From an uncultured virus (IMG/VR IMGVR_UViG_3300010351_001916) (taxonomy: Duplodnaviria; Heunggongvirae; Uroviricota; Caudoviricetes), in the IMG/VR virus record IMGVR_UViG_3300010351_001916: a stretch of DNA of 20,000 nucleotides. One strand, written 5' to 3'. Positions 1,079-20,000 of this stretch are shown here, one piece after another. The stretch's first letter is position 1. Each line of letters starts with the position of its first letter. The translations under genes and the position numbers were made by a program. The notes beneath the pieces are model-generated. The model saw only the letters and a program-made list of their open reading frames with translations, was not told the origin of the DNA and did not search any database.

Positions 1079-1091
1079 CGCAATAGCCCGG

Positions 1092-2146: not shown

Positions 2147-2541
2147 GGCGCGACGTGAGCCAACGTGGGGCCAGCACGCGCGTGTTCGTCTACGGCACGC
2201 TTCTGGAGGGCGAGGGGAACCACGACCTCCTCGCCCGCGCCGAGTTCCTTGGCCCGGCTCGCACGCCGCCCCGCTTCGCGCTCCACGACCTGGGAGGCTT
2301 CCCGGGTCTGGTCGCCGGCGGCGAGCACGCGGTCGACGGAGAAGTGTACATCGTCGGGCCGGACACCCTGGCCCGGTTGGATCAGCTCGAAGGCCATCCC
2401 CGGTTCTACCGGCGCGCTCCGATCGCCCTCGAGGACGGCTGCACCGTCGAAACCTACCTGCTGCCCCGCGACCGCGTCGAGGGACGTCCCGTCATCGCGT
2501 CGGGCAGCTGGCGCGCGCGCCGGAGAGAGAGGGTCGCATGA
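2143..2541 (+). CDS. Gamma-glutamylcyclotransferase / gamma-glutamylamine cyclotransferase (YtfP/GGACT-like)
   Basis: Motifs VFVYGTL, FPGLV, VDGEVY and LDQLEGHP. True start inferred at ATG 2143 (ATGA overlap with the previous stop), not 1663. Confidence 0.88.
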   Translation: MRRDVSQRGASTRVFVYGTLLEGEGNHDLLARAEFLGPARTPPRFALHDLGGFPGLVAGGEHAVDGEVYIVGPDTLARLDQLEGHPRFYRRAPIALEDGCTVETYLLPRDRVEGRPVIASGSWRARRRERVA

Positions 2542-2780
2542 ACATCGTGATGCGTGATGGCCGCGTCTTCCGCGGCACGGCGGTGCAGATCGTCAAGGCG
2601 ATGCAGGACATCGCGTTCGGTGTTGAGCAGTTCACGCTGCCCGAGTACATCGACTGGGTCGTGCAGAACGCCGCGAAATTCGAGGAGGTCGAGCTCAAGA
2701 TCACGGGCGAGACCGACGAGGAGAAGGCGGCGTCGCTGGTGGCGGAGATGATCAGGACGGGTTTGACGCGGAAGATGTGA
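2538..2780 (+). CDS. Hypothetical protein (80 aa, MNIVMRDGRVF...)
   Basis: ATGA overlap with the upstream stop, GGAGAGAGAGG RBS and strong codon bias. It is the real C-terminal part of the 1869..2780 ORF. Confidence 0.75.
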   Translation: MNIVMRDGRVFRGTAVQIVKAMQDIAFGVEQFTLPEYIDWVVQNAAKFEEVELKITGETDEEKAASLVAEMIRTGLTRKM

Positions 2781-2954
2781 GCGGCGAATTCCGTTTGGAT
2801 AGAAGCAGTTCGTCGACCGCTTCCGATTTCCGGCGCTTGGGTGCCGCGCTGAACACAGATTCGTGGGGCACATTCTTGGGAGTGAAGAAACAGCGGGACA
2901 CCATTCCGCTGAGAGTCTTGTATGATCGCCAGGCTGCCCAGAGGAGGTACGAGC

Positions 2955-3584
2955 ATGGTGACCATCGAGCTACAGCGATCGTTCTGGGTGAGTGCGCTGT
3001 TAACAGCGCACGAGTTGTACGAGTTCGCCGATGAGAACGAGCAGATCAAGTCGATGGAATGCCTCGGCTGGTGCTGGGGCGATCGCAACCACGCGCGCAA
3101 CCTGTTCGTTGTACGCTACGCGAGTGTGACGCAGCTTATCGAGCACCGGGATGAGGGCTCAGTGCTGGGGCCCGACCCGTTCACGAGCTTGTTGCACCAA
3201 GCGTGGGCGGGCCTCGACCTGGCCGACGTGAACCCACTCGGGAACTTCCACTCCCACCCGTGGTCCGCTGCCGAAGTCGACCAGATCCGCGGCAACGGCG
3301 AGCCGGACACGTTCTTCTGGGAAGCGTCCGACGCCGACAAGGACAGCATGGGGCCGGACATGATTGAGGTGATCATCGCGCTTCGCCCGATCGGCAAGGT
3401 CGACGCGGCCGAGCACCAGTGGGCCGAGCGCGGCCTCATCGTTTCCGGTAAGCACGATGTGAAGCACGTGGCGATCTCGGGGTGGCACAAGGACGATCAG
3501 GGGACCGTCACACAGGCAAAGGTTCGCTTCCCGGACTGCGCATTCATTAACGACCTGATCGCAAGGATTGATGCGCGGCGCTAA
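2955..3584 (+). CDS. JAB/MPN (Mov34/JAMM-like) metallopeptidase-domain protein
   Basis: MECLGWCWG (E-x-x-G strand), LGNFHSHP and a downstream SDAD match the JAMM E...HxH...SxxD pattern. GGAGG at 2943-2947 precedes ATG 2955. TATGAT -10-like box at 2921-2926. Confidence 0.75.
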   Translation: MVTIELQRSFWVSALLTAHELYEFADENEQIKSMECLGWCWGDRNHARNLFVVRYASVTQLIEHRDEGSVLGPDPFTSLLHQAWAGLDLADVNPLGNFHSHPWSAAEVDQIRGNGEPDTFFWEASDADKDSMGPDMIEVIIALRPIGKVDAAEHQWAERGLIVSGKHDVKHVAISGWHKDDQGTVTQAKVRFPDCAFINDLIARIDARR

Positions 3585-3885
3585 GCCACCTCTGGTTGCG
3601 CTTCTTGCGATACGGATGCTTGTCGACTTTCGCCGGCACTAGCGATCGTTCGCAGGGGACCTTCACCGGTCTGGTTTGGTAATAGTGTGAATAGAACCTT
3701 GTGCCCAGCTCGCGGGCGGCGGCAGAAAACACCTTCTGGACACCACACAGCGCGTCAACTACACCGCCGCGAAAACAGGGTACTTGACGAGCTGTGATTT
3801 CGCCAGGATCTGTGCCGATACCGAACACGGATGGGCAGGGTAGGTCAGTCCAGGTCGAGCCTCTTGGGCGCGCGCTCCGTCGCGG

Positions 3886-4521
3886 TCAGTTGGTCGATCG
3901 TGCTCGCTCACTGCGTGCAGGATGGGCGACGCCCGTCGCAGCCGCGAGTTCGGCGATCACGCGCTCGAGGACATCGCCCGGGCTCCCAGGGTCGCCTGAC
4001 ACGCGCACGAACCGTCCGACCACGTCCACGTGCGCGCGCCGCAGATGCTCGTCGCGCAGGCGGCAGTCAGCGTCGGCCGTGATGGTCTCCAGATCCTCGG
4101 CGCTCGTTCCTCGGCGGTGCAGTCTCGCGACGCGCGTCGCAAGCGGTGTGTCCATGTAGATGGTGACGTCCGCAGGCCGGAGCAGCCGCTGCACATCGTC
4201 GACCTCGAGCCGCGATCCCCTGAAGGCGGCGTACGCCTGGGTCGAGAGAAAGTAGCGGTCGAGGACTACCGAGCGACCTCGCTTCAGCAGCGCGGAGACC
4301 TCTTCCGACGCTGCGAAAACGGTGGCGAGGTAGAAGAGTTGCTTGGCCTCTTGGCTCGAGCCGAGGGTCTCGACGAGGTCGTCACGAAAGCTCCGAACGC
4401 GTGGCGAGGGGGTCGTCATGAATTCGGCGCTGATGCGCTCGGCGAGTTGGGCAGCGCACGTGCTCTTGCCGGAGCCGTCCAGGCCCTCGAACACAATGAA
4501 GGTCGGCCGGGGAAGCGTCAT
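3886..4521 (-). CDS. Thymidylate-kinase-family NMP kinase (CMPK2-like)
   Basis: P-loop FIVFEGLDGSGKST and VVLDRYFLST. AAGGAGG RBS and ATGA overlap with the radical SAM stop. Confidence 0.88.
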   Translation of the reverse strand: MTLPRPTFIVFEGLDGSGKSTCAAQLAERISAEFMTTPSPRVRSFRDDLVETLGSSQEAKQLFYLATVFAASEEVSALLKRGRSVVLDRYFLSTQAYAAFRGSRLEVDDVQRLLRPADVTIYMDTPLATRVARLHRRGTSAEDLETITADADCRLRDEHLRRAHVDVVGRFVRVSGDPGSPGDVLERVIAELAAATGVAHPARSERARSTN

Positions 4522-5861
4522 GCCGCCTCCTTCGTGCTCGCCGGGATCCAGCGGAAGAGGTCCGGCTCCTGTGTGGCGGCGAGCATCTTAAGCTCCCGCA
4601 TGTCCTTGGGGTGGCGCCCCTCCGTGAGCCGCAGCGCTTCGGAGAGCCGCGCCATCGCGCGCCAGTCGTCGATTTCGAAGGTGCTCGACCGGAGGACCAT
4701 GGGCATCGCTCCGCCGCTGTCGCCGAGGCTCCACTTGTCGCGCTCACGCTCGATGGCCGTCCCGCGCAGCAGCAGGAGCGGGAACGCCTTGATGACGGGC
4801 ACCTCACGCTCGAGACACCAAGCGACACTCGCCTCGAACGAGTCCACGGTCTGCAGCGGCAGGCCGAAGATCAGCGACACCTCGTGAGAGATGCCGCGGG
4901 ACCGCACCCCCGCGAGCGCTGCGTCCACCCGGCCGATCTGGTTGCGACGTGCGATCACGCGCCCCTCGGCCGCGTGGATCGTCTGGAGCCCGAACTCCAG
5001 GCAGACGTCCAGAGCTGACGCCGCGTCGAGGAACGCATCATTCACCGCCTCCGCTCGACACTGCAGCGACAGACGCCCCGTGAAGCTCCGCTCCGCGAAT
5101 CGCTCGAGGACGCCCACGGCGTGCGGTGCCATGTTGAAGATGGGGTCCAGCACGGCGATCTCGCGCACACCGGACTCGCAGAAGAGATCGATCTCGGCTT
5201 CGATACGCGGAAGGCCCAGGGCGCGCTGCCGCAGCCGCGCACCTGGCTCGCGGTGCTGGCAGAACGCGCAGCGGAACGGGCAGCCGCGCTGCGTCTCCCA
5301 CCGGATGAACGACTGGTCGGTCAGCGGGATCGTCCCCGTCAGCCACGGCGAAGGAAGCGCTTCAAGGTTCACCGCCGCCTGCGCGAGGGCGTCCGGCGTC
5401 CCCGCCCAGTGGACGCCAAGGATCGGATTCGGCCGCGTCGTCGCCGCGAGAGTCGCCAGCGCTTCCTCGCCGTAGCCGCGGATGAAAGCATCGACGTCGG
5501 GGTAGATGCGCTCGAGACCGCGCCCGCTGTAGGAAATCTGAGGGCCGCCGAGGATCAGCCGGCCGCTGAAGCCCGCCGCCCGTAGTCGGCGGACCACGCC
5601 CTGCAGCAACTCCTCCCCCCACACGTAGGCCCCGAACGCGACATCGACGTCGGCGGGGTCAATGCCCTGCATCTCCTTGAGGATGGTGGCGGTGATCCCG
5701 GCAGCGTCGAGGTCGGGTCCGTTGACGGCCACGACGATGGATCGGACTTCCAGCCCACCTCGTCCGCGCAGCGCGGTGAGGATGGACGCGTGACCCAGTG
5801 GGACGCGCGGGTCCTTGTCGCGCGTCCAGTAGAAATCGACGAGAATGCTGCGGCGGTTCAA
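4518..5861 (-). CDS. Cobalamin (B12)-binding-domain radical SAM protein
   Basis: ETQRGCPFRCAFC (CxxxCxxC). N-terminal B12-binding-like segments VAFGAYVW, LILGGPQ and FIRGYGE; core motifs LEFGLQT and LIFGLP. Start placed at TTG 5861 behind AGGAGG; ATG 5924 is an alternative. Confidence 0.88.
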   Translation of the reverse strand: MNRRSILVDFYWTRDKDPRVPLGHASILTALRGRGGLEVRSIVVAVNGPDLDAAGITATILKEMQGIDPADVDVAFGAYVWGEELLQGVVRRLRAAGFSGRLILGGPQISYSGRGLERIYPDVDAFIRGYGEEALATLAATTRPNPILGVHWAGTPDALAQAAVNLEALPSPWLTGTIPLTDQSFIRWETQRGCPFRCAFCQHREPGARLRQRALGLPRIEAEIDLFCESGVREIAVLDPIFNMAPHAVGVLERFAERSFTGRLSLQCRAEAVNDAFLDAASALDVCLEFGLQTIHAAEGRVIARRNQIGRVDAALAGVRSRGISHEVSLIFGLPLQTVDSFEASVAWCLEREVPVIKAFPLLLLRGTAIERERDKWSLGDSGGAMPMVLRSSTFEIDDWRAMARLSEALRLTEGRHPKDMRELKMLAATQEPDLFRWIPASTKEAA

Positions 5862-6026
5862 AGGGCCTCCTCGGCTCGGGCAGTCGCGATGACCGAGACG
5901 GCGCTGGATTCGGGATGCGGACATCGGACAGGAAAGATCGACGGAGCTACGAACTCACACGGAAGCGTTGTCCGCATGGGCTGCCGCTGCGCGTCTACCT
6001 CCCGACGCATGTGACCGGGAGCAGCG

Positions 6027-9000
6027 ATGAGATCCTTTGATGACCTCTTGAGACGACTCGACGCGGCCGAAGCCAAGGACTGGGAGGAGGAGTACGCAAG
6101 GGCCGCGGTTGAGCTCACGCGAGACCAGGCTTCCGCGGTGGTGTGCTCCGAGCGAGTCTACGCGCACTGGTTCGCGTTCCGGTTCGACGCGGGACCGCCC
6201 GGTGAGCCGCTTCCAACCACCGAGGCTGCCCTCGAGGCCGTTCTGCTCGGCAACGACGGATCGCCGCTTGATGCGTACCGCGTCGTGTTCGGGTCGCCGC
6301 CCGTCGCAGAGGACGCTCCGGTTGACCTGCGACTGGCTCTCCTCTGCAACGCTGCCGCCTGCGCCCTGAAGCAAGATACGTCCTGGTTTGCGACGTGGCT
6401 TGCCGCTTGTGCTGGTTTGGCAGCAATCGCCCTCGGCTCGCCCGAGCGGGCGTGGCCGTTCCTCGACGGCCTCACTACCGCAGGCCGTCGTCATCCGCAC
6501 CTGGACAAGCTCGCTATGTTCGAGCCTCTGCGTCGCAGCGAGGCCGCCCAATGGAGTCCGTGGGTGCGCGCTGTGATCTGCCGCCTTTGGCCCAAGCTGG
6601 GCGTGCCCGTGGTCCCCTCGCTGCCGTTCCCGGACGTGGGGGCCGACGAGGCTCCTCTCGAAGACACGCTCGACGAGCTCTCTCGCATCGGCGCGATCGA
6701 GGTCCGCGCCCTTGTCGAGGCTTTCGTCGAGGAGTTGGACTCGGTGGATCTCGAGCGCCGCGCAGACGAACCTCTCGTTCGCGAGCTCCGCGCGCGGGCC
6801 ATGGGAGGGAATCTCGTGCCGCCGACCGTCGACCGCGTGCCATCGTGGTTCCCGGGTTGGGCGCTCGCGGTGGCCCGCGCAGGCGAGGCGCACCTCGCGC
6901 GGCTGGCGGGCCTGGTCCTTCGCGGGGTGGACTCCGATGCGGAGCAGCTAGCGGCCATGCTCGTGCTGCCCGCCGCCCGCGCGGCCGACCTGGAGGTGCT
7001 CGCTGAGGGGCTCGACGCTCCCGAGCTACAACCGCTCTTCGCTGAACTCACGGTCGCCCGAGAAGCGCTCCCCTTTGAGGTGGCAGACGCATTGGTCGCA
7101 GCTGCGCTGCCCCGTCACATTCGTTACGTCGAGGCTCTTGGTGTACTGGCCCAGCACGTCGAGCTGCTCCAAGGTGTGGGCGCTACGCCCGGGGGTGTTG
7201 TCAACCACATCGCAACGACGTTGCGGGCCTTGATCGAGGGGAGGCAGCGAGAACACGAGGTCGTTCGTCCCATCCTCGAGCGAGTAACCGCCGAGGTCGG
7301 CCGTGAGGCCGGCCGGCTGAGCACCGTTGGGAGGCGCCTCAGCGCGGCCGACGTCGAGCGGGCTTCCGCGAAGATCGGAGTGCCGGAGGTCACCACCGGC
7401 CTGCTGGAAGCGGCCACCGAAGCCACTTCGGGACTTCCGGTTCTCAATCGACTGCTGCTCGCCCTCGCGCTCCGACGAGCGGTCGGCGAGACGGACCACA
7501 AGGATCACTGGGAAGCGCCGCTCGCAAAGCTGGCTTCTGATTCGATCTACGCTCTTGGTGAGCCGCAGCTGTTCGACCTGCGACTGCGCCTGCTCGACGA
7601 GGCGATCCAGGCCGCCCACCCCGGGATGCCGAACGCCAAACTCTACTTCCAGCGGGCGAACACTCGGGGGGCGACCAGGGCCGGAGACGTGCGATCGACC
7701 GAGCTCGCCCTCGCCGATCTGCACACGGCGATCCGGCTGGCGCGTGCCGAGGGGAACTCAGGTCTGTGCGCAGCGTCGACTGCCGCCTGGGTGAAGGCCC
7801 TCGTGTGGAGCGCCACTGATGACGGTGCGGGTCGCTCCGATCGACTCGCCGAGGCGGAGTCGGCCATCGCAGATGCCCTCGAACTGCCCCTCGATCCCAT
7901 CGACAGGGCCGCGGTTCACCAGGCGCGCGCTCACCTCGTGCGGCTGGGGAGCCCCGCGGAGTCCGTGAGCGCCTTCGAGGCCGCGCTCGCGCTGCTGATG
8001 CCCGAGGACCCGTTTTGGACCGAGATCGCCGCCGAGATTGTGGCGACCCTGCTGCGCGTGGATCGCCTCGAAGAGGCAGTGCAGCGCGGGACCGAGTACC
8101 TGAACCAGGTCCGGGGTGACGGCATCGGGATCGCGTTTGGGATGCTTCACCTGGCACTCGGAGAGGCGCACCTTGCGAGCGGGCACTGGGATGAGGCGCG
8201 GCGACAGCTCGAGAGCGGACTTCAACTGGTCCGTGGGCGCGACACCCTGAACGAAGCGCTTGCCCGGCTGCACCTCGCACAGCTTGGGCTGGCCGCTGGC
8301 GACAACGCGTTGAGCGAGGAGCATCTCCGGTTCCTGCGGGACCATCAAGAAGAGTTGGACCCGTTGACTCGCCGCGACCTCGACATCCTGGAGGCCGCCG
8401 CCCTCGCGGCACAAGGAGACACGGCCCAGCAGCGTGCGATGCTCGCCCGAACGCTCTCTACTGTGAAGGATGAGTGTGTGAGCGTTGGGCTGCGCCTCGA
8501 GATCGCGCGGCTCGACCTGGCCGCGGGACGTCCGGTCAACGGCCTCGACGGTCTCATCCTGCTCGGCCTTGAGACGGAGCTCGAGCCTCGCCACGAGGCG
8601 GTGCTGACCGATCTGCTCTGCGACCGCGATGAGTCGTTGGCTCCTTCGACGCGCGAGGAGGCGCTCCGTTGGGCTCGCCAGCGTCCGCCGAGCATCCTCG
8701 CACGGCTACAGCACCAAGCCGGCCGAACCGCGGAGGCCCGAAGCACGTTGCGCGCTGCGCTCGCCGGTGACCTAATAGACAACCACGAGCGCTTCGGCTG
8801 CACGCACTTGCTCATGACCTTGCTCGACAGCGAGCAGCACGACGAGCGGCGAGCGTTATGCGGCGAGCTGGAGCGGCTGCTCGACGCCGTCGAGGACGTG
8901 CCCCACGTCCGGCTCGATCTCGCGGCGGGGATGTGGATGGCAGCTAGCGACGAGCTGGGTGTGGTCCTGCGAGCGCGGGCGCACGCGCTTCGAGCGCTAG

Positions 9001-12000
9001 CTGCTCCTCTGGACCCGCGAGAGCGAGAGTTCGGTCATCGGACCATGGGGCGGATCACGATCGATCTGCTTCGGCTGTCGTTGCCGCTGTCGTCGCCTTC
9101 GCTCGCGCATGACGCGAGCTGGCTGCTCGAGGAGCTTGCGCTGGGCGAGCCGGAAGCCTCGAAGCTGCGGTTCGCGGCCGCGCATCTGCTGTTGCTGCCT
9201 GGCCCTCTGATGCACCCCGACGCGGTGAGCGTCGCGGGTCGCATGCTGGGCCTCGTGAGCGTACCGCCCGACGCACGGGCGTTCGGGGCGCTGGTTGAGC
9301 GTCTCCGATGGGTCCGAGACCTGGCTGGCCCTGCTTCGCCTGTGGTCCCGCCGGCAGCCGAGCTCCGCGGCCCGTTCGACCACCTCCCCACCTGGCTCGT
9401 TGACCAGGTGCATGGGCGCGACGGGACAGTCGCCCCGGACGAGCTCGCACTCGCTGCCTCTTCCCTTGCCACGGTCGTCCGAGCCCGACCGGACGTTGCC
9501 GACCCTCTGCTCGCGATGGCCATCTCCGCGCAGCACAAGCTCTCGGGGAGGCAGCGGAAGGAGCTGCTCGACGCTGTCTACTCGGCGGTTCAGTCCGCCG
9601 GCGAAGTAGGGAACGAGACCTGGCCGCGTCTGCGCGGAGCGCTCGACGGCGTCCAGAAGAAGCACCACCACCCAAAGCTTGCGAACATCCGGTCGGCGAC
9701 AAGGCACTCGTCGTCCTCAGAGCGTCGTGCGCCGATGACGCGGCAGGGCACGGCCAGCGTGCGGAAGCACATCACCACCGTGCACGTCGGAGGCCGGCAA
9801 CGAGCGAGGGATTGCTTCGAGCGAGGCGTGGGGCTGATGGATAGCCTTCGCCTCGACCGCTACGCTGCTGACGCCGGCCTGCGGCTCTCCCAGTCCCGCG
9901 CGCTTCTGGAGGAGGCGGTTGCCATCGCCCGGAAGAAGCGGATGCCTGAGCTGTTCGATTTCTTCGTCTCCTACGGCAACGCCTGGAAGATGAGCCCGGA
10001 CGAGGACGTGGCAAAGGCGCTGCGCATCTACGAGTCCGCAGCGAAGCTCGATGCTCTGCCGGAGCAGCAGGCCAAGCTCTGGAAAGTCCAGGCGGACGCT
10101 CTGCGGCTGAGGGGCACCGCGGATGACCTCCGACGAGCTGACCGACTCCTCGAACGAGCGTGTCGCGTCCGGAGCGGGCGCTGGCTCGCCGAGACCCTGA
10201 TGTCCAGGGCGGAGGTTGCCCTCGTGCATCCCGATCTTGACGACACCGCTCGGGAGAGAGGGGCCGCCTCCTTCACGATGGACGCGGTGAGGGCACACCG
10301 TGGCTTCGGAGACCAGGATGGGGTTGTGGGCTTCCTGCTTCATCGGCTCTCGGCATGGAAGAGGCTGCAGCCCAACGACGCAACGCCGGCGCGAGTTCGC
10401 GACGAACTCAAGGCTATCTACCCGTCCCGCGCCGCTCAGATCGATACCCGGGTGCTTCGCCTCACAGACCGCGAGGTCGAGAGCATCGTCGCGGTGATGG
10501 GGCACCCCGCAGGCAACGCCTTCCTGAAGATCCGAACGCGACTGATGGCCGCCAGCGACCGTGGCCTGGACGGTTTCCTGAACCAGTTCGGCCTCCCGGC
10601 GAAGGAAGCGGTAACGGAACAGATGGAGCGCGACTCGCTCGTTGGGCGCCCCGACCTCGCCGAGGAGGTCCTCGCCTCGTTGGTAGTCTCCGCAGACGAA
10701 GCGGCGCGCCCAGGCATGCTCGCGGGACGAGTCGTCCTGTTGGCGTACCTCGCTCGCATCGGGCGACGGACCCTAGACGAGGTGCGGACAGCCACCGCCG
10801 AGGCGATCGCAGCAATCGGTGACGTCGAGGAGATCCTCGTTCGGTCGACGCTGCTGCGAGAAGTCGCGGTCGCCTGGGCTCCCGACGACCACGCCGAGGA
10901 TCCCGTCCGCGACTTCGCCCTCTCGGTAGATCTGCTCCGACGGTGCCTCACGTGGGAGGGTGGAGAGGAGAGCGCGGTGGGCGACACCCTCGCCTTCCTG
11001 GCCCGCGCCCTACGCTACTCGCCCGCCGGCGACCTCCAGTCGAATCTTCGTGAGGCTCGACGGTTGTATGAGCTTCGCCTCGAGCGCGCGCGTGCGGCCG
11101 ACGGCCCAGACGTAATCGCCAACCTCGTGCACAACCTGGCGGACGTCGAGAGCCAGATGGGCACGGGGAGCCGCCTTGAACGCATGCGCGCCGCCGAGCA
11201 GCGACTGGAGGAAGCAGCCTCGACAGCGCAGTCGCCCCACAAGAAGGCGCAGTACATAGGCAACCTCGCCTGGGAGCGAACGCAGATCGGCACGTTGATC
11301 GGAGGCTCCGAAGGCAGGGGGTACATCGAGAAGGCCCTCGCCACCTTCGACGAAGTGGACCAGACGCTGCTCGACGAACATGGGAGGAGGAACGTCGCGG
11401 GCAACCGCCGCGTGTGTGAGGCCACCCTCGCCAGGCTCGTCGGCGGACGAGTCGCCGAGATCGCGTCGTGGCGGGAGCACCTGGCGACGCTCGACGACCG
11501 TGCAGCCCCGAACAGCGTCGCGACCGCGAAGCACAACCTCGCCGACGCCCTGATGTTCGGCGAAGACGTCACTCGCGCAGCGCTGGCCGAGGGGCTCCGG
11601 CTGTCGCGCGAGGCCGCCGAGGTGAGGACGCTCGAGGCGAACCCGCGGCATCACTGGGAGACTTCTCTCAACATCGGGCGCGCGCTCGTCGGCGCCCTGG
11701 CGACGGGGCGCCTCGACATCCTTCCGCTCCCGCCAGGCCAGGCGGCGGCAGAGGCCGGATTGTGGCTGCGTCGAGCGGCCGCCGCAGCGCGCATCCTGGG
11801 GCCCGGCGAGGAGCTCCTCGACGCGGCCTTCGCCCTCTGCGCGCTCGCTGCTGGTGCGCCCACGCCGGAGGCCTTCATCGATCACACCGAGGAAGCGTGG
11901 ACGCTGGTTCACGAGGCTTTTGCTTACCTACTGCTTCACCCCCAAAGCCGAGGGCGCGAGGCCTGGTCGGCTACGAGCATGGCGGCGCAATTGGCATACA

Positions 12001-13397
12001 GGCTCGCGGAGCGCTCCCTCGCAGTTCCATCGCGCGGGCTCGCCTTCGTCCTTCACGGCGAGAGCGCTCGGCTCGTGGAGCGCTGGATCGTCCGAGCCCA
12101 GCAGCCCGCGAGGCGACCGCTTCAAGCACGGCTCTCCCGCCCGGAAGCTGTGTCGGCGTCTGTATGGGACGCATGGCGGAACGCCGTCGGATCCAGCGAC
12201 CAGCGGCAGATGGCGGACGCGCTCGATCGAGTACGAGAGGCCGCCCGCTCGTTCCTCGCCGAGGATCACGCCAACGACGTGACGTTGCGCTGGCTCCAGG
12301 CACGGCCGGGCAGCGTCGCGGTGGCCCTGATCCTCGCCGAGCCCGTGTCCCTGGCGCTGCTCATGCAGGCGGACGGGACCGGCGAGCGCAAGACCTGGGT
12401 ACTCGGTCTCGAGCTGGGGCCACCACCGCTTCCCCTCGATGCGCTGACGGGCTTGATGAGCGGGGCCGTCCCAGGGCCGAGCGCCCACGCTCTGCTCGAC
12501 GCACTCGCTCAGTGGATCAGGCGGGGTGTAGTGGAACCTATCGAGCGGTTTCTTGGCGAACCCCCGACCGCGGTCTTGTGGAGCCCAGGACCTGGCCTTC
12601 GTCTCGTCGCGCCCAGTGCCGTCTGGCGCACTGTCCCGGTGGCAGCGACGACTTCCCTCGTGCTCCCTGACCTCACCTCCTCGCCGAGTCGGCGCCGCTC
12701 ATCGCTGGTCATGCTCGCCGACCCCGGTGCCCAGACGCCAGATCCGCGGCTCGACCTCCGCGGTCAAGGCGTGCCGACCTTGCAAACGCTCGAACGCGCG
12801 GCTGCTCGACGGGGCCCCGTGCGACTGCTGGGGAGCGTCGGGGAACGCTTCGGGCGAGCGCTTCTCGGAGAGCGCTCGGAGGTTCGCGACACCCCTGCCA
12901 GCGCCCGCGACGTCATGCTCGAAGCGGCGGAGCACGAGGTCATCATCCTCGTCGCACACGGCGAGGTTGAAACGCTGGGGGATGCGGCGGTGCTGTGCCT
13001 TGATGCATCCGGAAGCATCGACCGGCTCGACGTCGCGCAGCTTGGGCGGTCACCCGATGCTTTCGCTGGGGCCACCGTGCTTTTGCTCTCGTGCGAAGGT
13101 GGGCGGATGGGCGACTCGTTGATCGAACCAGGAGGCCTCGCAGGAACACTGCTCTCGGCCGGCGCCGCTTGTGTGGTCGCCCCCTTGTGGCCGGTGCGTC
13201 TGGACGCCGCCGAGCAGGTCGGTCGGGCAGTGCTCGAAGGCATGGCCTCGGGCGACGAGCCGTGGACCGTCCTGGCGAAGCTCGACCTGCACGCGCATGG
13301 CGACTCACCGACGTTGGGCAGGCCGGCACCTTCGCTGTCGGAGCGACGAGCGGAGCAGGCTCTTCAGCGCCTAGCCTTCGTCGCATGGGTAGGCTGA
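6027..13397 (+). CDS. Giant TPR-like alpha-helical repeat protein with a C-terminal CHAT (caspase-like) protease domain
   Basis: 2456-aa ORF with Ala/Leu-rich helical repeats. The C-terminus has IILVAHG (His codon 12957-12959), VLLLSCEGG (Cys codon 13092-13094) and GLAGTLLSAGAACVVAPLWPV, all CHAT signatures. Confidence 0.88.
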   Translation: MRSFDDLLRRLDAAEAKDWEEEYARAAVELTRDQASAVVCSERVYAHWFAFRFDAGPPGEPLPTTEAALEAVLLGNDGSPLDAYRVVFGSPPVAEDAPVDLRLALLCNAAACALKQDTSWFATWLAACAGLAAIALGSPERAWPFLDGLTTAGRRHPHLDKLAMFEPLRRSEAAQWSPWVRAVICRLWPKLGVPVVPSLPFPDVGADEAPLEDTLDELSRIGAIEVRALVEAFVEELDSVDLERRADEPLVRELRARAMGGNLVPPTVDRVPSWFPGWALAVARAGEAHLARLAGLVLRGVDSDAEQLAAMLVLPAARAADLEVLAEGLDAPELQPLFAELTVAREALPFEVADALVAAALPRHIRYVEALGVLAQHVELLQGVGATPGGVVNHIATTLRALIEGRQREHEVVRPILERVTAEVGREAGRLSTVGRRLSAADVERASAKIGVPEVTTGLLEAATEATSGLPVLNRLLLALALRRAVGETDHKDHWEAPLAKLASDSIYALGEPQLFDLRLRLLDEAIQAAHPGMPNAKLYFQRANTRGATRAGDVRSTELALADLHTAIRLARAEGNSGLCAASTAAWVKALVWSATDDGAGRSDRLAEAESAIADALELPLDPIDRAAVHQARAHLVRLGSPAESVSAFEAALALLMPEDPFWTEIAAEIVATLLRVDRLEEAVQRGTEYLNQVRGDGIGIAFGMLHLALGEAHLASGHWDEARRQLESGLQLVRGRDTLNEALARLHLAQLGLAAGDNALSEEHLRFLRDHQEELDPLTRRDLDILEAAALAAQGDTAQQRAMLARTLSTVKDECVSVGLRLEIARLDLAAGRPVNGLDGLILLGLETELEPRHEAVLTDLLCDRDESLAPSTREEALRWARQRPPSILARLQHQAGRTAEARSTLRAALAGDLIDNHERFGCTHLLMTLLDSEQHDERRALCGELERLLDAVEDVPHVRLDLAAGMWMAASDELGVVLRARAHALRALAAPLDPREREFGHRTMGRITIDLLRLSLPLSSPSLAHDASWLLEELALGEPEASKLRFAAAHLLLLPGPLMHPDAVSVAGRMLGLVSVPPDARAFGALVERLRWVRDLAGPASPVVPPAAELRGPFDHLPTWLVDQVHGRDGTVAPDELALAASSLATVVRARPDVADPLLAMAISAQHKLSGRQRKELLDAVYSAVQSAGEVGNETWPRLRGALDGVQKKHHHPKLANIRSATRHSSSSERRAPMTRQGTASVRKHITTVHVGGRQRARDCFERGVGLMDSLRLDRYAADAGLRLSQSRALLEEAVAIARKKRMPELFDFFVSYGNAWKMSPDEDVAKALRIYESAAKLDALPEQQAKLWKVQADALRLRGTADDLRRADRLLERACRVRSGRWLAETLMSRAEVALVHPDLDDTARERGAASFTMDAVRAHRGFGDQDGVVGFLLHRLSAWKRLQPNDATPARVRDELKAIYPSRAAQIDTRVLRLTDREVESIVAVMGHPAGNAFLKIRTRLMAASDRGLDGFLNQFGLPAKEAVTEQMERDSLVGRPDLAEEVLASLVVSADEAARPGMLAGRVVLLAYLARIGRRTLDEVRTATAEAIAAIGDVEEILVRSTLLREVAVAWAPDDHAEDPVRDFALSVDLLRRCLTWEGGEESAVGDTLAFLARALRYSPAGDLQSNLREARRLYELRLERARAADGPDVIANLVHNLADVESQMGTGSRLERMRAAEQRLEEAASTAQSPHKKAQYIGNLAWERTQIGTLIGGSEGRGYIEKALATFDEVDQTLLDEHGRRNVAGNRRVCEATLARLVGGRVAEIASWREHLATLDDRAAPNSVATAKHNLADALMFGEDVTRAALAEGLRLSREAAEVRTLEANPRHHWETSLNIGRALVGALATGRLDILPLPPGQAAAEAGLWLRRAAAAARILGPGEELLDAAFALCALAAGAPTPEAFIDHTEEAWTLVHEAFAYLLLHPQSRGREAWSATSMAAQLAYRLAERSLAVPSRGLAFVLHGESARLVERWIVRAQQPARRPLQARLSRPEAVSASVWDAWRNAVGSSDQRQMADALDRVREAARSFLAEDHANDVTLRWLQARPGSVAVALILAEPVSLALLMQADGTGERKTWVLGLELGPPPLPLDALTGLMSGAVPGPSAHALLDALAQWIRRGVVEPIERFLGEPPTAVLWSPGPGLRLVAPSAVWRTVPVAATTSLVLPDLTSSPSRRRSSLVMLADPGAQTPDPRLDLRGQGVPTLQTLERAAARRGPVRLLGSVGERFGRALLGERSEVRDTPASARDVMLEAAEHEVIILVAHGEVETLGDAAVLCLDASGSIDRLDVAQLGRSPDAFAGATVLLLSCEGGRMGDSLIEPGGLAGTLLSAGAACVVAPLWPVRLDAAEQVGRAVLEGMASGDEPWTVLAKLDLHAHGDSPTLGRPAPSLSERRAEQALQRLAFVAWVG

Positions 13398-14875
13398 AGC
13401 TCTCGTGCACGAGCCACAACGTCGCCCCTTGTGGACGCCTCCTTCAGCACCTGCGCCATGCTCAGGCCGACGAGCGGCGTCTCCCCCGCGATGATCACGA
13501 CCAGTGCCTGCTCGTGTGCGCTCAGTCGCCACAGGTCCCCGTCGACGTCGGTGAAACGCTCGGTAACTTCCCAGCCGTCCGGGTGCTCAGCGTCAACGAC
13601 GAAGACGCGGTAGTGAGGCGCTCCGGGAGCTGGACGCCCGCGAACCGCCCACTCGTCGTTGGCGACGTCGGACCCACCCATCGTGGGCGCCAGATGCGAC
13701 ATGGTCAGCCCCTCGATGCTTCGATCGATCCAGGTCGCCGCGGCGTCGGTCGCTCGCGTCGCGATGTCCGCGATCTGGTCCCGCCAGCTAAACCACCGAG
13801 GCTCTTGCGGGATGAGGTCATCGGCGAGTCGTGAAGCTGGGCGGATCCACGGGGCCCCCTCCCGCGCGAGCGCCGCCGTGCATGCATCCTCCACGGCGCC
13901 CCACAGCCGCACAGCCAGGCTCGGCTGTGCTGCGAAGGCGTGCACGCGATGACGCGCACGATCGCCGATGTGCGCCCACTCCGCAGGCAGCCACGGAAGC
14001 AGCATCTCTGCCTCATCGCAGAACGCCTCGGCCTCTGACTCCGCACCCACGGCGGCGGCGACTGCGAGGAGCTCCTCGGCCTCAGCAAGGACGGCTTCGA
14101 GATCTTCCGGGCGTGCCTCCTTGAGGGCACCCGCTAGCCGCCCCACCAGAGGCTCCCATCCGAGAGCCCCTCGTAGCTCCTCCATTACCGAGTCGGGCGT
14201 CCCGGAGAGGGACTTCTCGGCGGCGGGTAGCGCGTCGCGGACCGCGGGTACATGCCGAAGGAGCCGACCGTAGCCCACAGCCGATGCCTGCCACCACAGC
14301 TCCCTCGCCGTCGAGGGCAGCCTAGACACACGCCGGAGGTTCTCGGCAACGGTTGGTGCAAGCTCATCCACGTTCACGCCGGTCTCCTTCCGGAAATACC
14401 AGACCCCATGTCGGCGGAGTTCGGCCTCATCCCAATCGACGTCTTGGAGCGGCGGATGCGGACGAAATGCCGTGACGACCCAACTCCGAGGCCGGTCGAG
14501 CTGGACGACGATGAAAACGCAGCGCGGGGTCAGCGCCTGGTGCCGGTGCGAGGCGTCCATGGACGGCGTCCAGACCGTCTCGAGGGACGACATCTCCGCG
14601 GAGTAGGCGGGCGCGTAGGCGGCATCGTGGTGAGCGACTAGCAGATCCCTCGCTCGACGCCATCGCTCCCCGGCCAGACGTGGGAGCGCGCTATTGCTGG
14701 CACGAGCGGCGCCCACGACGTCCTCGGCTTCGAGACGCATTGCCGCGACGTCGATGCTGCAGACCCGCTCCCAGTGCTCGTGCGGGTTATAGAAGTGCTG
14801 CCAGACCTTCTTCGGGCAGAGCTTCCGCGGGATGAGCTCGATCGGTCCCAGCGACGGATGCGTCCATGCGCTCAT
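13364..14875 (-). CDS. Hypothetical 503-aa protein coupled to the ECF sigma factor (candidate anti-sigma or protease substrate)
   Basis: Long ORF with GGAGG RBS and ATGA overlap with the sigma stop. No obvious TM segment and no recognised family. Confidence 0.75.
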   Translation of the reverse strand: MSAWTHPSLGPIELIPRKLCPKKVWQHFYNPHEHWERVCSIDVAAMRLEAEDVVGAARASNSALPRLAGERWRRARDLLVAHHDAAYAPAYSAEMSSLETVWTPSMDASHRHQALTPRCVFIVVQLDRPRSWVVTAFRPHPPLQDVDWDEAELRRHGVWYFRKETGVNVDELAPTVAENLRRVSRLPSTARELWWQASAVGYGRLLRHVPAVRDALPAAEKSLSGTPDSVMEELRGALGWEPLVGRLAGALKEARPEDLEAVLAEAEELLAVAAAVGAESEAEAFCDEAEMLLPWLPAEWAHIGDRARHRVHAFAAQPSLAVRLWGAVEDACTAALAREGAPWIRPASRLADDLIPQEPRWFSWRDQIADIATRATDAAATWIDRSIEGLTMSHLAPTMGGSDVANDEWAVRGRPAPGAPHYRVFVVDAEHPDGWEVTERFTDVDGDLWRLSAHEQALVVIIAGETPLVGLSMAQVLKEASTRGDVVARARELQPTHATKARR

Positions 14876-15582
14876 GCTCCGTCCTCCTCGAGCTGCGCCC
14901 TCAGCTTCTCGCGGGCCCTGGATCGACGACGGCGAAAGCGCTCCATCCTCATCCGACGGATCTCGGGATCGTCCGGATCGTCATCGCCGGGATCGAATAT
15001 GGTCGTGAGTGCGTACATGTCGTCCGCGGCGTCGATGGCATCGCGAAGGCCTGAGGCATTGGAACCTGTGCGCTCGGCGAGCCAAAAGACCTCTTCCTCA
15101 GTCAGCCACTCCGGGGCGAGTTCGAGCTTGAGTACCACACGGTCGGCCGGCGACAGGCGAGCGAGGGCAGCGTGAACTCGCGCCCGCTGCTCGTCGCGCA
15201 GCACAGCATGAAGTGGGGAAGCCGAAGGCTCCGCCGGGATCTCCCACTCACCTGCTCCAGTTTCGAGCGAGGACTCGCGCTTGCGCGCGCGAGCGCGATA
15301 GCAGTCGATGCAGTGGTTGCGGAACGTGCGTCTCAGGTAGGCTCGTAGGTCGGTGATGTCGTCCGGGAAACGGCTCTCCACGAGCCGCACGAGCAAGTCC
15401 CGGAGCGCATCCTCGACGAGGTCTTCTGGCCAGGAGCGGCGGACCAGCGCTGGAGTCATCAGTCGCAGCTCGCTCTCGATGAACCGCAGGACCGAGCGCC
15501 CGACTTCCGGGCGACGCTCTTCGTGCCACTGCACCAAGAGGTCTAGAGCGTTGTCCCAGGATGCGCGCTGCTCCTCAGTCAT
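14872..15582 (-). CDS. ECF-type (sigma-70 group 4) RNA polymerase sigma factor
   Basis: Region 2: LVEDALRDLLVRL...DLRAYLRRTFRNHCIDCYR. Region 4: VHAALARLSPADRVVLKL...RSRAREKLR. ATG 15582 is preceded by GGAGAG. Confidence 0.82.
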   Translation of the reverse strand: MTEEQRASWDNALDLLVQWHEERRPEVGRSVLRFIESELRLMTPALVRRSWPEDLVEDALRDLLVRLVESRFPDDITDLRAYLRRTFRNHCIDCYRARARKRESSLETGAGEWEIPAEPSASPLHAVLRDEQRARVHAALARLSPADRVVLKLELAPEWLTEEEVFWLAERTGSNASGLRDAIDAADDMYALTTIFDPGDDDPDDPEIRRMRMERFRRRRSRAREKLRAQLEEDGA

Positions 15583-15709
15583 CGCGCTCTCCGTCGGGCG
15601 TCGCCGGACGCACCCGCTTGTCGATCCTCTGGGCCATCGTGTACGCGGTCTTCTCCCCGATCTTGAGGAGGGCTGCGAGCTCACGGATGGTCAGGATCTC
15701 GTCGTCCAC
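15575..15709 (-). pseudogene. Excisionase-family (HTH_17/MerR-like) DNA-binding gene, apparently internally deleted (44 aa)
   Basis: DEILTIRELAALLKIGEKTAYTMAQ is the typical N-terminal HTH, but the usual wing (G-x-LP-x-FKV-x-GQWRF) is missing. GAGG RBS before GTG 15709. Confidence 0.7.
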
Positions 15710-16016
15710 GCCGGGCACCTCGCGCCAGAGCGACGACCGGTAGATACCAAAGAACACCAATGTTCACAACGCGAGTCGGCCCGACGCGGCCCGACGCGAA
15801 GCGATCGCTGCTCGTCCTCGCGCCGACGCGTTGGACCGCGTGCCGGAAGGACCGGCACGAAGATTTCCTGGCAGCGGCTCCGGACTTAACGTCAACGTCG
15901 ATCGAGAGCCCGGTGCACAACGAAAGGCGCGCGCCGGACTCGGCGAGGGGCGCGCAGAAACCTACCCGGGGATGACCCGGGCAAGGCTCCGCGCGCCTAC
16001 TCTCCTGTAGAAAGCG

Positions 16017-18398
16017 TCAGCCAGTTGAGGAGCCGGATGAGCCGGATAACTCGTCGGGGCCGCGCACGCCGCCCTCGCCATCGAACGCCTCCGCATCCAC
16101 ACCACCGGCGTCGTGGAGAATCGTCGCGTAGTTCGCGCGCAGGTACTCATCCGTGAGTGCAACAACATCCTCCGCAGCTCCAGCGACCTGAGTGTTCGTC
16201 GCGCTCGTGACTTCGCGCGCTGCCGCGTTCAAACGCCAGGCCAGTTGAAAGAGGTCCTCTGCGATGGCGTGCTCGGCCATTCCAACCATTTCCTCCGGTC
16301 GAACATAGAAGCCAGCGATCATCGCGTTGCCAAGGGGCTCTACAACGCCGTTGTTCAGGCACGGTACCGAGCCCTTGCCGGGGAACTCGTGAAAATGGAA
16401 TCCGACCATCTCCCGCCATCGCTCGTCTTGAACGCGCCGGAGGAAGCCATCGAATGCCCCGACGGTCGCAATGATCCATCCGTTCGGGCTTACTTCGCCC
16501 TCTGGTCCGGCCATCGGGAGTATTGCAAGCTGGGCGAGGACGAGCCACGGATGGATGTTGCCGATCATCGCCGACGGTTCGGGCGTTTCGATCTCTCCGA
16601 GCACGCGGCCACGGAAAGACACCTGCAGGGTGGACCCAGCCGGAATGGTCTCGGTGCTTGGCGAGTCAGATAGCGCTTGTTGGATCATGCGCGAGAATCG
16701 CGCGGCGTCTCGATCTGCGAGCACTCGGAGCGCCCCGGCACCAACGATGTCGCCCAACGGCAGCAGGTCGCTCCGCGACATCAGCGCCTGGTAGGCCTCG
16801 TCAAAGTTCGCGATGGTCGACACGATCTCGCCGAGTTCAAGCGCGGCCGCTTTGGCGAACAGTTCGAGGTGGCGCGGCAGAAGAAGCACTTCTTCATGCG
16901 CGCCAAGCCGCGTGGACAGAAAGCTGTGTTTCTGGAGCCACGCCAGCGTGTCCGGCTGCATGAGCTTCGAGGCGACATCCTGTCGCATCGCGGCAGCTCG
17001 GTATGATGCGAGCTGGAGCTCAGCGTCGCTCGCTCTCGTCGCAACGTCTTCGAGATATGCGCGCGCGAGGTGTCGCAGCCCTGCCACGAGGTCATGGTTG
17101 GAGCGGACCAGGGCGCTCCACGTCATGTCGACCTCGCTGAGCGTGGTGGTGCTCGGAAATTTCAGGCAGGTCCCGTCGTCTCCCGCGGCGCGAGGCGGCA
17201 GGCGCCCCGCAATCACTCGAAGGACACGTGGCTCGCGGTACTCGATGTTGTACTGGCCGCCGAAGTGAGGCTGACTGCGTGTTGCCTCGAAGAGTTGCGC
17301 CATCGCCACGTTGAACTCCCGGTCAGAGAGGAGTTCGAGGTGGACGACCTCGGCACGCAGACCGAACTCCGTCTTCGTCTGACGTCCTGGTCGCAGCGAC
17401 AGTGCCTTCCAGGTGTTTGGATCGAGAGCCGTGACGATAGAGAGCGGCGATGCCGCCCCGAGTGCGAGGAGCTCATCCAGATCGCCGAGCCAGGTGTCGT
17501 TCAGCTCAGGCACGATCTCGTCGAGGAACAGCACGAGGCGCGTCTCGTCGTGCAGCGTACGCAGAGACGTCGAGAGCCACTGCCGAACCTGCTCAAGGCT
17601 GGTGGCCGTGAAGAGGTTCTTCGCGAAGACGGAGGCCAGCAGACGAAGCGGGCCGTGACGCGCGCTGCTCGCGTCGACGTACAGTGGAACCAGACTGCCG
17701 GTCGCGAGTTTCTCACAGCACTGCTTGAGCACGACCGACTTGCCCGAGAGCGGAGGTCCCACGACCGCCACGGCCGGCGCGTTCTTGCGTAGCTTGCCGA
17801 GCACTCGAGCAACAAGCTCGCGCTCGACTGAAAACCCCTGAGCAAACGGGAGGCTGAAGTTCTTGATCTCTCCAGTCCGCGCCGCGAGGGCGTCCGCGGT
17901 GTGTTTGCGAAGGAAGTCAGCCCACACGCTCGGGTTGGCCCCCAGCAGGCTGCGGATTGCCTCGTCACGAGCTGCGGCCGCTACGGCAGCGGCGCCCGCG
18001 ATCAGGTTGGCGAAAACGTCGTCGCTGATGCCTTGGCGCTCCCAGGGAGTCCCGTCGATGGTCTTGTAGAACCTGGTCGTCCTTCCGTTCGAGACGATCA
18101 CCAGCGGTGGCATGGGCGTTAGCAGTCGCGCGTAAGACAGCCCTTGGTCGCGGTCATCTTCCGTCAAGTCGATGTCTGGGCGTTTCAGCTCCAGAACCGC
18201 AACGTGGCCAACCTCGGCCGTCAGGAGCACGTCCGCTCGGCCCTTCTTTTCCCAGCCCTTGCGGCCATCGGCTTCAAAGTCATGGTGACCGAGCCGGACG
18301 GTGAACTGGAGCTGGTGGGTTACTTGAACGCCACTTGTCGGAAAGAGATCTGCAAGCACTGCGCCCAGATGGGTTTCGAAGGTGGCCTCGTTCATCAT
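16017..18398 (-). CDS. HsdR-N-type PD-(D/E)xK nuclease fused to a P-loop NTPase and an unknown C-terminal region (putative defence protein)
   Basis: GRADVLL...VLELKRP...DQGLSYA...VIVSNG matches the type I restriction R-subunit N-terminal nuclease. Walker A GPPLSGKS and Walker B LVLFLDE. Start uncertain (ATG 18398 or 18395, or GTG 18473). Confidence 0.82.
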   Translation of the reverse strand: MMNEATFETHLGAVLADLFPTSGVQVTHQLQFTVRLGHHDFEADGRKGWEKKGRADVLLTAEVGHVAVLELKRPDIDLTEDDRDQGLSYARLLTPMPPLVIVSNGRTTRFYKTIDGTPWERQGISDDVFANLIAGAAAVAAAARDEAIRSLLGANPSVWADFLRKHTADALAARTGEIKNFSLPFAQGFSVERELVARVLGKLRKNAPAVAVVGPPLSGKSVVLKQCCEKLATGSLVPLYVDASSARHGPLRLLASVFAKNLFTATSLEQVRQWLSTSLRTLHDETRLVLFLDEIVPELNDTWLGDLDELLALGAASPLSIVTALDPNTWKALSLRPGRQTKTEFGLRAEVVHLELLSDREFNVAMAQLFEATRSQPHFGGQYNIEYREPRVLRVIAGRLPPRAAGDDGTCLKFPSTTTLSEVDMTWSALVRSNHDLVAGLRHLARAYLEDVATRASDAELQLASYRAAAMRQDVASKLMQPDTLAWLQKHSFLSTRLGAHEEVLLLPRHLELFAKAAALELGEIVSTIANFDEAYQALMSRSDLLPLGDIVGAGALRVLADRDAARFSRMIQQALSDSPSTETIPAGSTLQVSFRGRVLGEIETPEPSAMIGNIHPWLVLAQLAILPMAGPEGEVSPNGWIIATVGAFDGFLRRVQDERWREMVGFHFHEFPGKGSVPCLNNGVVEPLGNAMIAGFYVRPEEMVGMAEHAIAEDLFQLAWRLNAAAREVTSATNTQVAGAAEDVVALTDEYLRANYATILHDAGGVDAEAFDGEGGVRGPDELSGSSGSSTG

Positions 18399-18613
18399 CG
18401 CGTGCAGTTTTCCTCGCTGTTGCTCACCTGGGGGCCTCCCAGGCACGCTTGGCCCGAGCGTCGTTTCTTCCACGGGATAGGCCCGCGGGCCGCGGAGATC
18501 CTACATCAACCGGCTGTGTCGCCACCCAAACCCTCGTCCGGCTTTGTCCTCCCCCGTGGTCCGCAGGAGAACGGCGGCCGCCGTCGTGGTGTCGCGTGTG
18601 CCGTGAGTGCTTC

Positions 18614-18643
18614 TTGACGCGTCCACCTCGGGTGTGGTCTGTT
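18614..18643 (+). promoter_or_regulatory. Possible sigma-70 promoter of the tRNA-like gene
   Basis: TTGACG at 18614-18619, then TG-G-TCTGTT (a weak extended -10 lacking the conserved A) ending 8 nt before the cloverleaf. Confidence 0.35.
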
Positions 18644-18650
18644 CTCTCCG

Positions 18651-18726
18651 TCCAGCTTAGCTCGGTCGGTAGAGCAGGTGGCTGTACAACCATCGGGTCG
18701 CTGGGAGAGCCCAGCAGTTGGAACCA
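18651..18726 (+). tRNA. Non-canonical tRNA or pseudo-tRNA (tRNA-Asn-like body, 8-nt anticodon loop CTGTACAA)
   Basis: 76-nt cloverleaf: acceptor TCCAGCT/AGTTGGA, D stem GCTC/GAGC with loop GGTCGGTA, anticodon stem GGTGG/CCATC, variable loop GGGTC, T stem GCTGG/CCAGC, discriminator A and encoded CCA. Confidence 0.82.
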
Positions 18727-18800
18727 GTGCAACGAGGCGACCGCACGACTGTGTGGATCGCCTCTTCGCGTTCCATGCCCCTCCGCACGTTGACGACGCG

Positions 18801-20000
18801 ATGGACTCGCGCTTGAACGCGCGCCCCGTGCTGTCTCTCGCCTTCCGCACCCTCGAGTTCCTGTTCTACCACGTGCTGTTGTCGCTCGTGGATCGCGTCG
18901 CGCGCCTTCCACGCACGACGATGCTGCCCGAAGCCGCGCGCTTGTATCGGCAGAACATCGCGCTGAAAGCGCAGCTCGACGCGCTCGAAGATCACCTCGC
19001 GCGCATCGAGAACAAGCGTCGCGCGAAGCCTCTTTCGGTGCGCGCGGCGCAGGTGTTCGCGCTCTTGCTCACACGCGGCGACGAGCAGTTCCTTCGGTAC
19101 TTCTTGTCGTCGCCTCGCGCCACGATCGAGCGATGGCTGACGCGCTTCAGATCGCTCTGGGGACGATCGCTCGGAGGCAGGCCGCGCACGGACGTCGACG
19201 TCGAAGACCTGGTCGTGACGCTCAAACGGGAGAACCCGAGCTGGGGGCAGCGCCGCATTCGCGAAGAGCTACGGCGCATGGGCATTCGCGTGAGCGAGCC
19301 GACTATCATGCGCATCCTGCGCGAGCACGGCTTCACGCCGCACCCACTGCGGAAGCTGTCGTTCGAGCGGGTGCAGTCGTCGGTCAAGGACGCGTTGTGG
19401 GCCGTGGACTTCTTCGCGGTGAAGACCGCGACCGGTGCCTGGCTGCAGGTGCTGATCGTGATCGACGTGCACACGCGCGAGGTCCTCGGGCTCCGCGCGT
19501 ACGACGGCTGGGACGTCGACTCGTTCTGGACCATCCGCGCGTTCAACGCGATCGCCAGCGCTGTGAAGCGCCTGCCGACGAAGGTCGTGCATGATCACGG
19601 ACCGACGTTCCTGGGCCAGTTTGCGCGCCAGCTTCGCGTGCTCGGCGTCGAGCGCGAGCTCACGCCCGCACGGATGCCGTACATGAATTGCTACGTCGAG
19701 CGGTGGATCGGCTCCGTTCGCCGCGAGCTGTTGCGCCACGTGCGCGTGCACGACGTCGTGGAGCTCCAAGACTGGCTCGACGAGTACCGCGCGTACGCGA
19801 ACGCCGAACGGGCACACCAAGGGCTCGATGGGCGCACACCGAACGAGGTCGCGCGCGGGCAGCCGGAGGCCGTAGTGCTCGAGCTCGAGCAGCTGCGGAC
19901 GCGCAAGCTGGTGCGGCGCATGTACGCCAACGGCTTGCTCCAAGGGTACTCGCTGGTCGAACGCGACGACGGCGTTGCTCCGGACCGCAAGGCCGCGTAG
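18801..20000 (+). mobile_element. DDE transposase with an rve integrase core (IS3/IS481-like)
   Basis: HTH ENPSWGQRRIREELRRMG. Catalytic triad in WAVDFF, VVHDHG and NCYVERW; tail ERAHQGL. Stop TAG at 19998-20000. ATG 18801 preferred because the 18678 start lies inside the tRNA-like element. Confidence 0.88.

Follow-up and report, generated by a model that had tools for sequence, protein, structure and literature searches.

The 20,000-nt window analysed here, that is, the whole stretch of DNA taken from the uncultured virus record IMGVR_UViG_3300010351_001916, carries a disabled copy of a tRNA-Asn gene, which forms part of a separable cassette close to the right end of elements that target tRNA-Asn genes. 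This pseudo-tRNA is real, shared and partly constrained, and it is most probably neither a translational nor an aminoacyl-donor tRNA. Judging from the sequence comparisons below, we see an even chance that it is a captured and disabled tRNA gene whose core has been kept as a weakly transcribed non-coding leader/terminator cassette.

Structure and identity of the window copy

The pseudo-tRNA-Asn(GTT) occupies positions 18651–18726 on the plus strand, where pairing, folding and alignment indicate that a cloverleaf can form although the T loop and the anticodon are destroyed. The 76-nt sequence can make all 21 cloverleaf pairs and encodes its CCA, and thus has the four paired stems and the 3′ end of a canonical tRNA, but it lacks a TTC-containing T loop, A14 and a 7-nt anticodon loop. 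It shows instead G14, an 8-nt anticodon loop (CTGTACAA) and the 6-nt T loop GAGAGC, together with A73, a U1-A72 pair and a 5-nt variable loop. Re-reading the letters bore out the paired stems, the CCA, G14, the 8-nt anticodon loop, the GAGAGC T loop and A73 as they had been described in an earlier note on this DNA. The same note had limited the changes to the loops, which proved incorrect, since the window copy also departs from the commonest tRNA-Asn of the family at the discriminator and at stem positions 29, 41, 42 and 68. ARAGORN called no tRNA in the window and returned only noise with a relaxed threshold, and Rfam gave no match at E ≤ 1 over positions 14,000–20,000. The sequence is nevertheless unusually stable (folding z = −3.16; 0 of 200 shuffles equally stable), and its local alignment to tRNA-Asn scores 90 versus 23–24 elsewhere in the window, a resemblance to tRNA far beyond chance. 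The minimum-energy fold retains the acceptor and T stems, with the D and anticodon arms refolded. A contig of run X1 spanning 18300–18817 and one of run X2 spanning 18300–18834 match the window letter for letter, so that an assembly error does not account for the sequence; X1 is possibly the source of the window. An N-terminal extension translated from the tRNA region was considered and rejected, the GTG at 18678 not being conserved.

When compared to the commonest tRNA-Asn of the family, the window copy is identical in 65 of 77 columns, while the best genes of the other isotypes compared, a set without tRNA-Val, reached 54 (Thr), 53 (Phe) and 44 columns (Tyr, 44 of 87). By its sequence, the window copy is a tRNA-Asn(GTT) derivative, a statement about origin and not about function, and the tRNA-Asn body recognized in the earlier note is upheld. 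Bacterial tRNA-Tyr has a long variable arm and a G1-C72 pair. The Tyr-like identity suggested earlier does not hold against the column counts, the short variable loop and U1-A72, and on this comparison the Tyr-like appearance is an accident of one copy. Normal tRNA-Asn(GTT) is nearly invariant in the related genomes, with A14 and T54 in 57 of 57 distinct loci, which were taken from best-match lists and not randomly sampled.

Nine copies and their shared features

Nine distinct copies of the pseudo-tRNA were obtained, counting identical DNA retrieved twice only once: that of the window, four in genome G001, two in G243, one in G137 and one on a metagenome contig. A tenth variant is visible in a contig of run X3. 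The relatives are myxobacterial sequences, and the closest integrase loci are annotated as Myxococcales, Polyangiaceae and 'Deltaproteobacteria' MAGs; G001, G137 and G243 each possess a normal tRNA-Asn as well. Of 151 family genomes searched with an RNA model, only 3 contained copies and no new copy came to light, the 23 other top matches and three second matches inspected being normal tRNA-Asn. A family-wide DNA search matched 3 of 383 genomes, although only two candidates were scored in each genome and known copies escaped it. The pseudo-tRNA pattern had one exact match among metagenome contigs and none among viral contigs.

All nine copies open the T loop with GAG in place of TTCG and have lost the GTT anticodon, and neither the T loop nor the anticodon is restored in any of them. 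Because it is present in every copy, the loss of the T loop is ancestral and shared, and not private to this DNA; by contrast, G14, which the earlier note had listed among the oddities, occurs in the window only and is not a family feature. The anticodon loop exists in five forms with lengths of 5, 6, 7 or 8 nt, the 8-nt GUAC form of the window being found in three copies and 8-nt loops of any sequence in four. CCA is lost in three copies and the acceptor stem contains mismatches in five; the other copies pair at 16–21 of the 21 cloverleaf positions, and the complete cloverleaf of the window is the best-preserved case and not the family norm. The T stem GCTGG/CCAGC is present in eight of the nine, and four copies combine the host-type C29 with A41, a broken pair.

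The cassette and its neighbouring genes

The pseudo-tRNA belongs to a cassette of about 170 bp, composed of promoter, tRNA and hairpin, situated near the right end of prophages or islands of about 100 kb. Alignment of the copies points to a down-mutated tRNA-type promoter at 18614–18640 (plus strand), with TTGACG and TGGTCT separated by a 15-nt spacer, which a scan for consensus promoters did not call. The promoters of the host tRNA-Asn genes read TTGACN, 16 nt, TANNNT; the cassette has a −10 box without its A and a spacer one base shorter than that of the host, which counts against a leader/terminator role. TTGAC and TGG are unchanged in eight of the nine copies, while the 15-nt spacer between them changes 1.7–2.2 times per site. 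Following the CCA, the alignment and the consensus fold indicate a GC-rich hairpin with a weak T tail (18734–18764, plus strand), terminator- or attenuator-like and common to the copies, although that of copy L100 is degenerate and displaced. This arrangement suggests capture of an entire tRNA transcription unit, with weakening of its promoter.

Downstream of the cassette, six copies have an rve integrase gene, two have no gene and one has a Phd/ParE-type pair. In the window, the rve/DDE integrase-core gene (18801–20000, plus strand) encodes 399 aa with profile matches to HTH_32 and rve_3, and its product contains a D-35-E triad (D203, D265, E300). It is IS481/IS3-like but falls under both NCBIfam cut-offs (IS481, 126.5 vs. 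224 bits; IS3, 116.8 vs. 160). A plain insertion sequence with terminal repeats was considered for this gene and is unsupported, with no TG...CA ends seen by eye. The segment 18788–18800 (plus strand), which contains a second TTGAC at 18790, is the left boundary of a separate integrase module, as runs X1–X3 have loose ends at 18788 and copies without the pseudo-tRNA join at approximately 18755–18790. Three of nine close integrase copies, at identities of at least 87%, lack the cassette, which is therefore dispensable; no cassette was found near integrase homologues of 52–68% identity. In L018 (6443–8552), L016 and L017, an element with two tyrosine recombinases interrupts integrase copies at about codon 147.

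The upstream neighbours vary among the copies and include genes encoding peptidase M48/M56, AbiEii, an enolase, an AAA protein and hypothetical proteins. In the window, profile matches place variable cargo between the core block and the right end (2781–18600), consisting of a PDC-M51 pair, a CHAT protease, an ECF sigma factor and an NTPase; only two matches of about 110 nt to this segment appeared in the four genomes searched. The radical SAM and kinase pair at 3886–5924 (minus strand) corresponds to PADLOC PDC-M51A/B (E = 2e-144 and 2e-59), and positions 6027–15684 contain a 2456-aa protein with a C-terminal CHAT domain, a convergent 503-aa gene and the ECF sigma factor, which may make up a caspase-like signalling module. 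The gene at 16017–18473 (minus strand) would encode a divergent nuclease-like/STAND NTPase, with weak HSDR_N and nSTAND5 matches below the cut-off and no PADLOC match. It adjoins none of the other eight copies, and its sole homologue found lies in a 3-kb locus without a tRNA-like match; it is one more cargo gene, and the earlier idea that the RNA acts as its cofactor is not sustained. Among viral contigs, no relative of either the integrase or the NTPase was found.

Prophages and islands stacked at tRNA-Asn

Positions 1–2780 (plus strand) form a conserved prophage core block, recognized by genome matches and including an amidoligase (173–1078) and GGACT (1706–2146), of which G001, G137 and G243 each contain several copies. 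A single contig of G243 (C31) bears terminase, portal, head protease and tail genes, the core block, the pseudo-tRNA and the integrase, with the core block situated between the phage head/tail genes and the pseudo-tRNA. In G137, tRNA-Asn precedes a set of defence genes, a large serine recombinase linked to DUF2924, and structural genes for portal, capsid, sheath and baseplate; the contig concerned terminates within the first 220 nt of the window, and its join to the right-arm contigs is a probable one.

Homologues of the integrase lie 20 kb (G080, on one contig) or 30 kb (G144) 3′ of tRNA-Asn, on the same strand. The final six bases of tRNA-Asn, GAGCCA, reappear after the integrase gene and are followed by sequence found elsewhere directly behind a real tRNA-Asn. 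This junction was located 355–458 nt past the integrase gene at 11 of 23 loci of at least 50% identity and at 0 of 6 of 30–36% identity, against a background of about 0.08, where the loci counted had enough downstream sequence and six shorter ones were dropped. The junction repeat measures only about 6 bp, and in relatives the pseudo-tRNA lies 0.3–1.8 kb inside the junction. The left-end motif of the elements, 33–37 nt past the CCA, was present at 32 of 58 real tRNA-Asn loci vs. 0 of 9 pseudo copies, the latter not being nine independent tests because the copies share ancestry. Large serine recombinases recur in these elements; as none was matched in the 20-kb unit of G080, the rve/DDE protein is a candidate tRNA-targeting integrase. 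On this arrangement of sequences, the window most likely represents the right arm of one prophage within a tandem tRNA-Asn array, and its own joint would lie past base 20,000.

Several further observations were made on these loci. The conserved left end comprises a hairpin, a GTYAAC-like word at +33 to +37 and a terminator, and the word mirrors the anticodon GTTAAC about the CCA end; examples are the tRNA-Asn loci L006, L029, L039, L092 and L156 (family f1), and joints are seen in L055, L062 and L100. The joint-adjacent IS481/IS3-like DDE clade consists of window 18801–20000 and L055–L074. Elements 3′ of tRNA-Asn repeatedly contain DUF2924 and a large serine recombinase that is CcrB/XisF-like but scores below cut-offs, as in L187 (9303–11718, minus strand), L105 (4351–7096), L111, L113 and L176. 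Contigs G137:C15, G137:C32 and G243:C31 contain tandem myovirus-like prophages of about 100 kb with RecA, WYL, helicases and two cargo hotspots, which hold a Gabija-like pair, Argonaute, Sir2-HerA, restriction genes and metal efflux genes. In one right-end type, an opposite-strand tRNA T-arm fragment is situated about 130 nt before the joint (L012, 7470–7500; L103, near 17630, minus strand). A type I-G CRISPR-Cas operon lies immediately 3′ of tRNA-Asn in G074 (L120, 1051–7964, minus strand), and G131 contains a degenerate fragment of the 3′ two-thirds of tRNA-Asn (L087, 1500–1557, plus strand), its tRNA-Asn being 179 kb away on the opposite strand.

Constraint on the pseudo-tRNA

The D arm, variable loop and T stem accumulated 5 changes in 34 columns vs. 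22.8 expected from the fourfold-degenerate sites of the integrase in the six integrase-bearing copies, a comparison that is imperfect because the genealogies of the pseudo-tRNA and the integrase disagree in a mosaic fashion. By parsimony, the core, whose columns were selected after viewing the alignment, changed 0.24–0.35 times per site vs. 1.75–2.0 for the leader and the promoter spacer. Rates in the acceptor and anticodon stems are approximately neutral. The earlier argument against random decay is upheld for part of the molecule, which looks constrained. Covariation was limited to two pairs with two-sided changes, equalled in 47 of 500 shuffles, and in the free consensus fold two-sided changes affect 1 of 36 pairs, while L100 has one compensatory T-stem pair. 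The D, T and 3′ hairpins persist in the free consensus fold and the cloverleaf does not. Conversion by a host tRNA could, from the sequences, be the source of the D-arm conservation; for the T stem, conversion by the current host fails because the GCTGG/CCAGC stem differs from that of the tRNA-Asn in all three of G001, G137 and G243.

Interpretation and alternatives

The leader/terminator reading would begin with the capture of a host tRNA-Asn transcription unit (promoter, tRNA and 3′ hairpin) by an element integrating at the 3′ end of tRNA-Asn. A tRNA without a T-loop elbow and an anticodon is not expected to undergo processing, charging or decoding, and the loss of both may have removed the RNA from all three. 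Loss of the GTTAAC motif of the real target would also protect the element from insertion by others of its kind. The cassette would yield, as predicted from its sequence, a weak, uncharged RNA of about 115–125 nt with three hairpins, for the sake of which the D arm, variable loop, T stem, promoter boxes and hairpin may have been retained, and which could act as leader and terminator between variable cargo and the integrase gene, the toxin-antitoxin pair or the element end. The rarity and dispensability of the cassette (3 of 151 genomes; integrase copies without it) count against this reading. A bolder and doubtful version holds that the prophage family domesticated the copy of its integration target: the RNA would be invisible to translation, the DNA would no longer be a target, the D-arm/T-stem core would be a functional small RNA (acting as regulatory leader or as decoy towards tRNA-binding defence proteins), and the arrays would be stacked via the 6-bp joint.

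A functionless relic, in which tRNA-Asn was captured once, knocked out early and has been decaying, with conservation maintained by recombination with the adjacent host tRNA-Asn, is quite possible, though on balance unlikely. It agrees with the near-neutral acceptor and anticodon stems, the loss of CCA in three of the nine copies, a rare and dispensable cassette, a promoter that looks crippled, and C29 with A41 in four copies, a broken pair such as conversion of the 5′ half would leave; against it stand the T stem of eight copies, which is unlike the tRNA-Asn of G001, G137 and G243, the TTGAC and TGG boxes fixed next to a fast-changing spacer, and a T loop and anticodon restored nowhere. That the locus acts at the DNA level, as a non-recombining look-alike of the attachment site for the recombinase of the element or for a regulator, is improbable. 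What is conserved is indeed sequence and not pairing, and GTYRAC-like words, which are similar to the TTGAC boxes, occur repeatedly at the ends of elements, but the changed parts include GTTAAC itself and the acceptor 3′ end by the junction, and the serine recombinase gene is tens of kb distant.

We consider a charged RNA, whether a +1 frameshift suppressor, a non-ribosomal aminoacyl donor, a decoy or a cofactor of the nuclease-NTPase, very improbable. The 21 pairs, CCA and 8-nt loop of the window copy suit such a role, and a decoy is conceivable in elements so rich in defence genes; still, the family has no TTC, its neighbour genes include none common to all copies, and no aminoacyl transferase appeared among the Pfam matches of the scanned ORFs. 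Since the nine copies do not share loop form, CCA or an intact acceptor stem, the RNA is most probably not the frameshift suppressor or aminoacyl donor proposed earlier: the former is contradicted by an anticodon loop broken in five ways and a T loop lost throughout, the latter by the three copies without CCA and the five with acceptor mismatches. It is extremely improbable that the copy is an attR scar, the displaced half of an integration site. The elements do integrate at tRNA-Asn, and damaged displaced fragments are known from the accessible part of PMC4383910, but this copy is full length, carries an upstream promoter and lies well inside a junction with a very short repeat, unlike a displaced attR/attL fragment, since the junction is farther downstream. 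The decayed integration-site copy offered in the earlier note as its alternative therefore survives only insofar as the sequence is a copy of the target gene; a displaced end fragment it is not.

Comparison with known systems

A search of the literature, with most subscription papers outside its reach, retrieved no publication on this element. The closest precedent appears, by analogy and from the accessible part of PMC3146451, to be the pseudo-tRNA-Gly of the Dehalococcoides ssrA islands, where a conserved 76-nt tRNA-like locus is found in tandem islands with a large serine recombinase. Both are tRNA-like loci with an odd anticodon loop in tandem elements targeting tDNA, and our locus would be a variant of such island-borne pseudo-tRNAs that works alike without being homologous. 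The Dehalococcoides locus is described there as tRNA-Gly-like, situated within a mom gene and not a copy of the target ssrA, whereas the present one is an intergenic copy of the target gene with a promoter and a hairpin, near the far end of a prophage. Islander islands, as far as the available part of PMC4383910 covers them, contain displaced and damaged tDNA fragments, and only tyrosine integrases were known at tDNAs in 2014; tycheposons, from the portion seen of bioRxiv 10.1101/2020.12.28.424599, accrete in tandem, with serine recombinases in the minority. On these partial sources, our elements share with both the integration at tRNA 3′ ends, the tandem stacking and partial or damaged tRNA inside islands, and differ in the junction repeat of about 6 bp, the full-length internal copy and the serine- and DDE-type recombinases. 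A Klebsiella preprint, in the part available, lists tRNA-Asn as a common island target.

Other tRNA derivatives offer looser parallels. The yjdF riboswitch, in the accessible text of PMC9142559, has a tRNA-related fold acting in cis upstream of a gene and retains the D-loop/T-loop elbow, while the pseudo-tRNA has lost the T-loop motif and has no Rfam match, and the gene downstream of it is variable or absent. The staphylococcal non-proteinogenic tRNA-Gly has, according to the part of PMC12256121 consulted, a UCC anticodon, charging by GlyRS and altered T-stem determinants for EF-Tu; it is likewise a tRNA derivative withdrawn from translation, but unlike it the pseudo-tRNA has a host-like T stem, a destroyed anticodon and a CCA that is not kept. 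Known +1 frameshift suppressors have an 8-nt anticodon loop in otherwise intact tRNAs. Four of the nine copies resemble them in loop length, and the family differs in its lost T loop and unconserved loop sequence.

Significance

If the locus is a relic, it offers an annotation lesson only. If the core is functional, it would represent a recent recruitment of a tRNA as a non-coding element, and the nine natural variants separate the parts retained (D arm, T stem and promoter boxes) from those dropped (anticodon, T loop and acceptor end). The tRNA-Asn locus is a myxobacterial hotspot at which prophages of about 100 kb and defence islands are inserted with a 6-bp repeat only, and island finders that depend on a tyrosine integrase together with a longer stretch of tRNA would overlook these elements.
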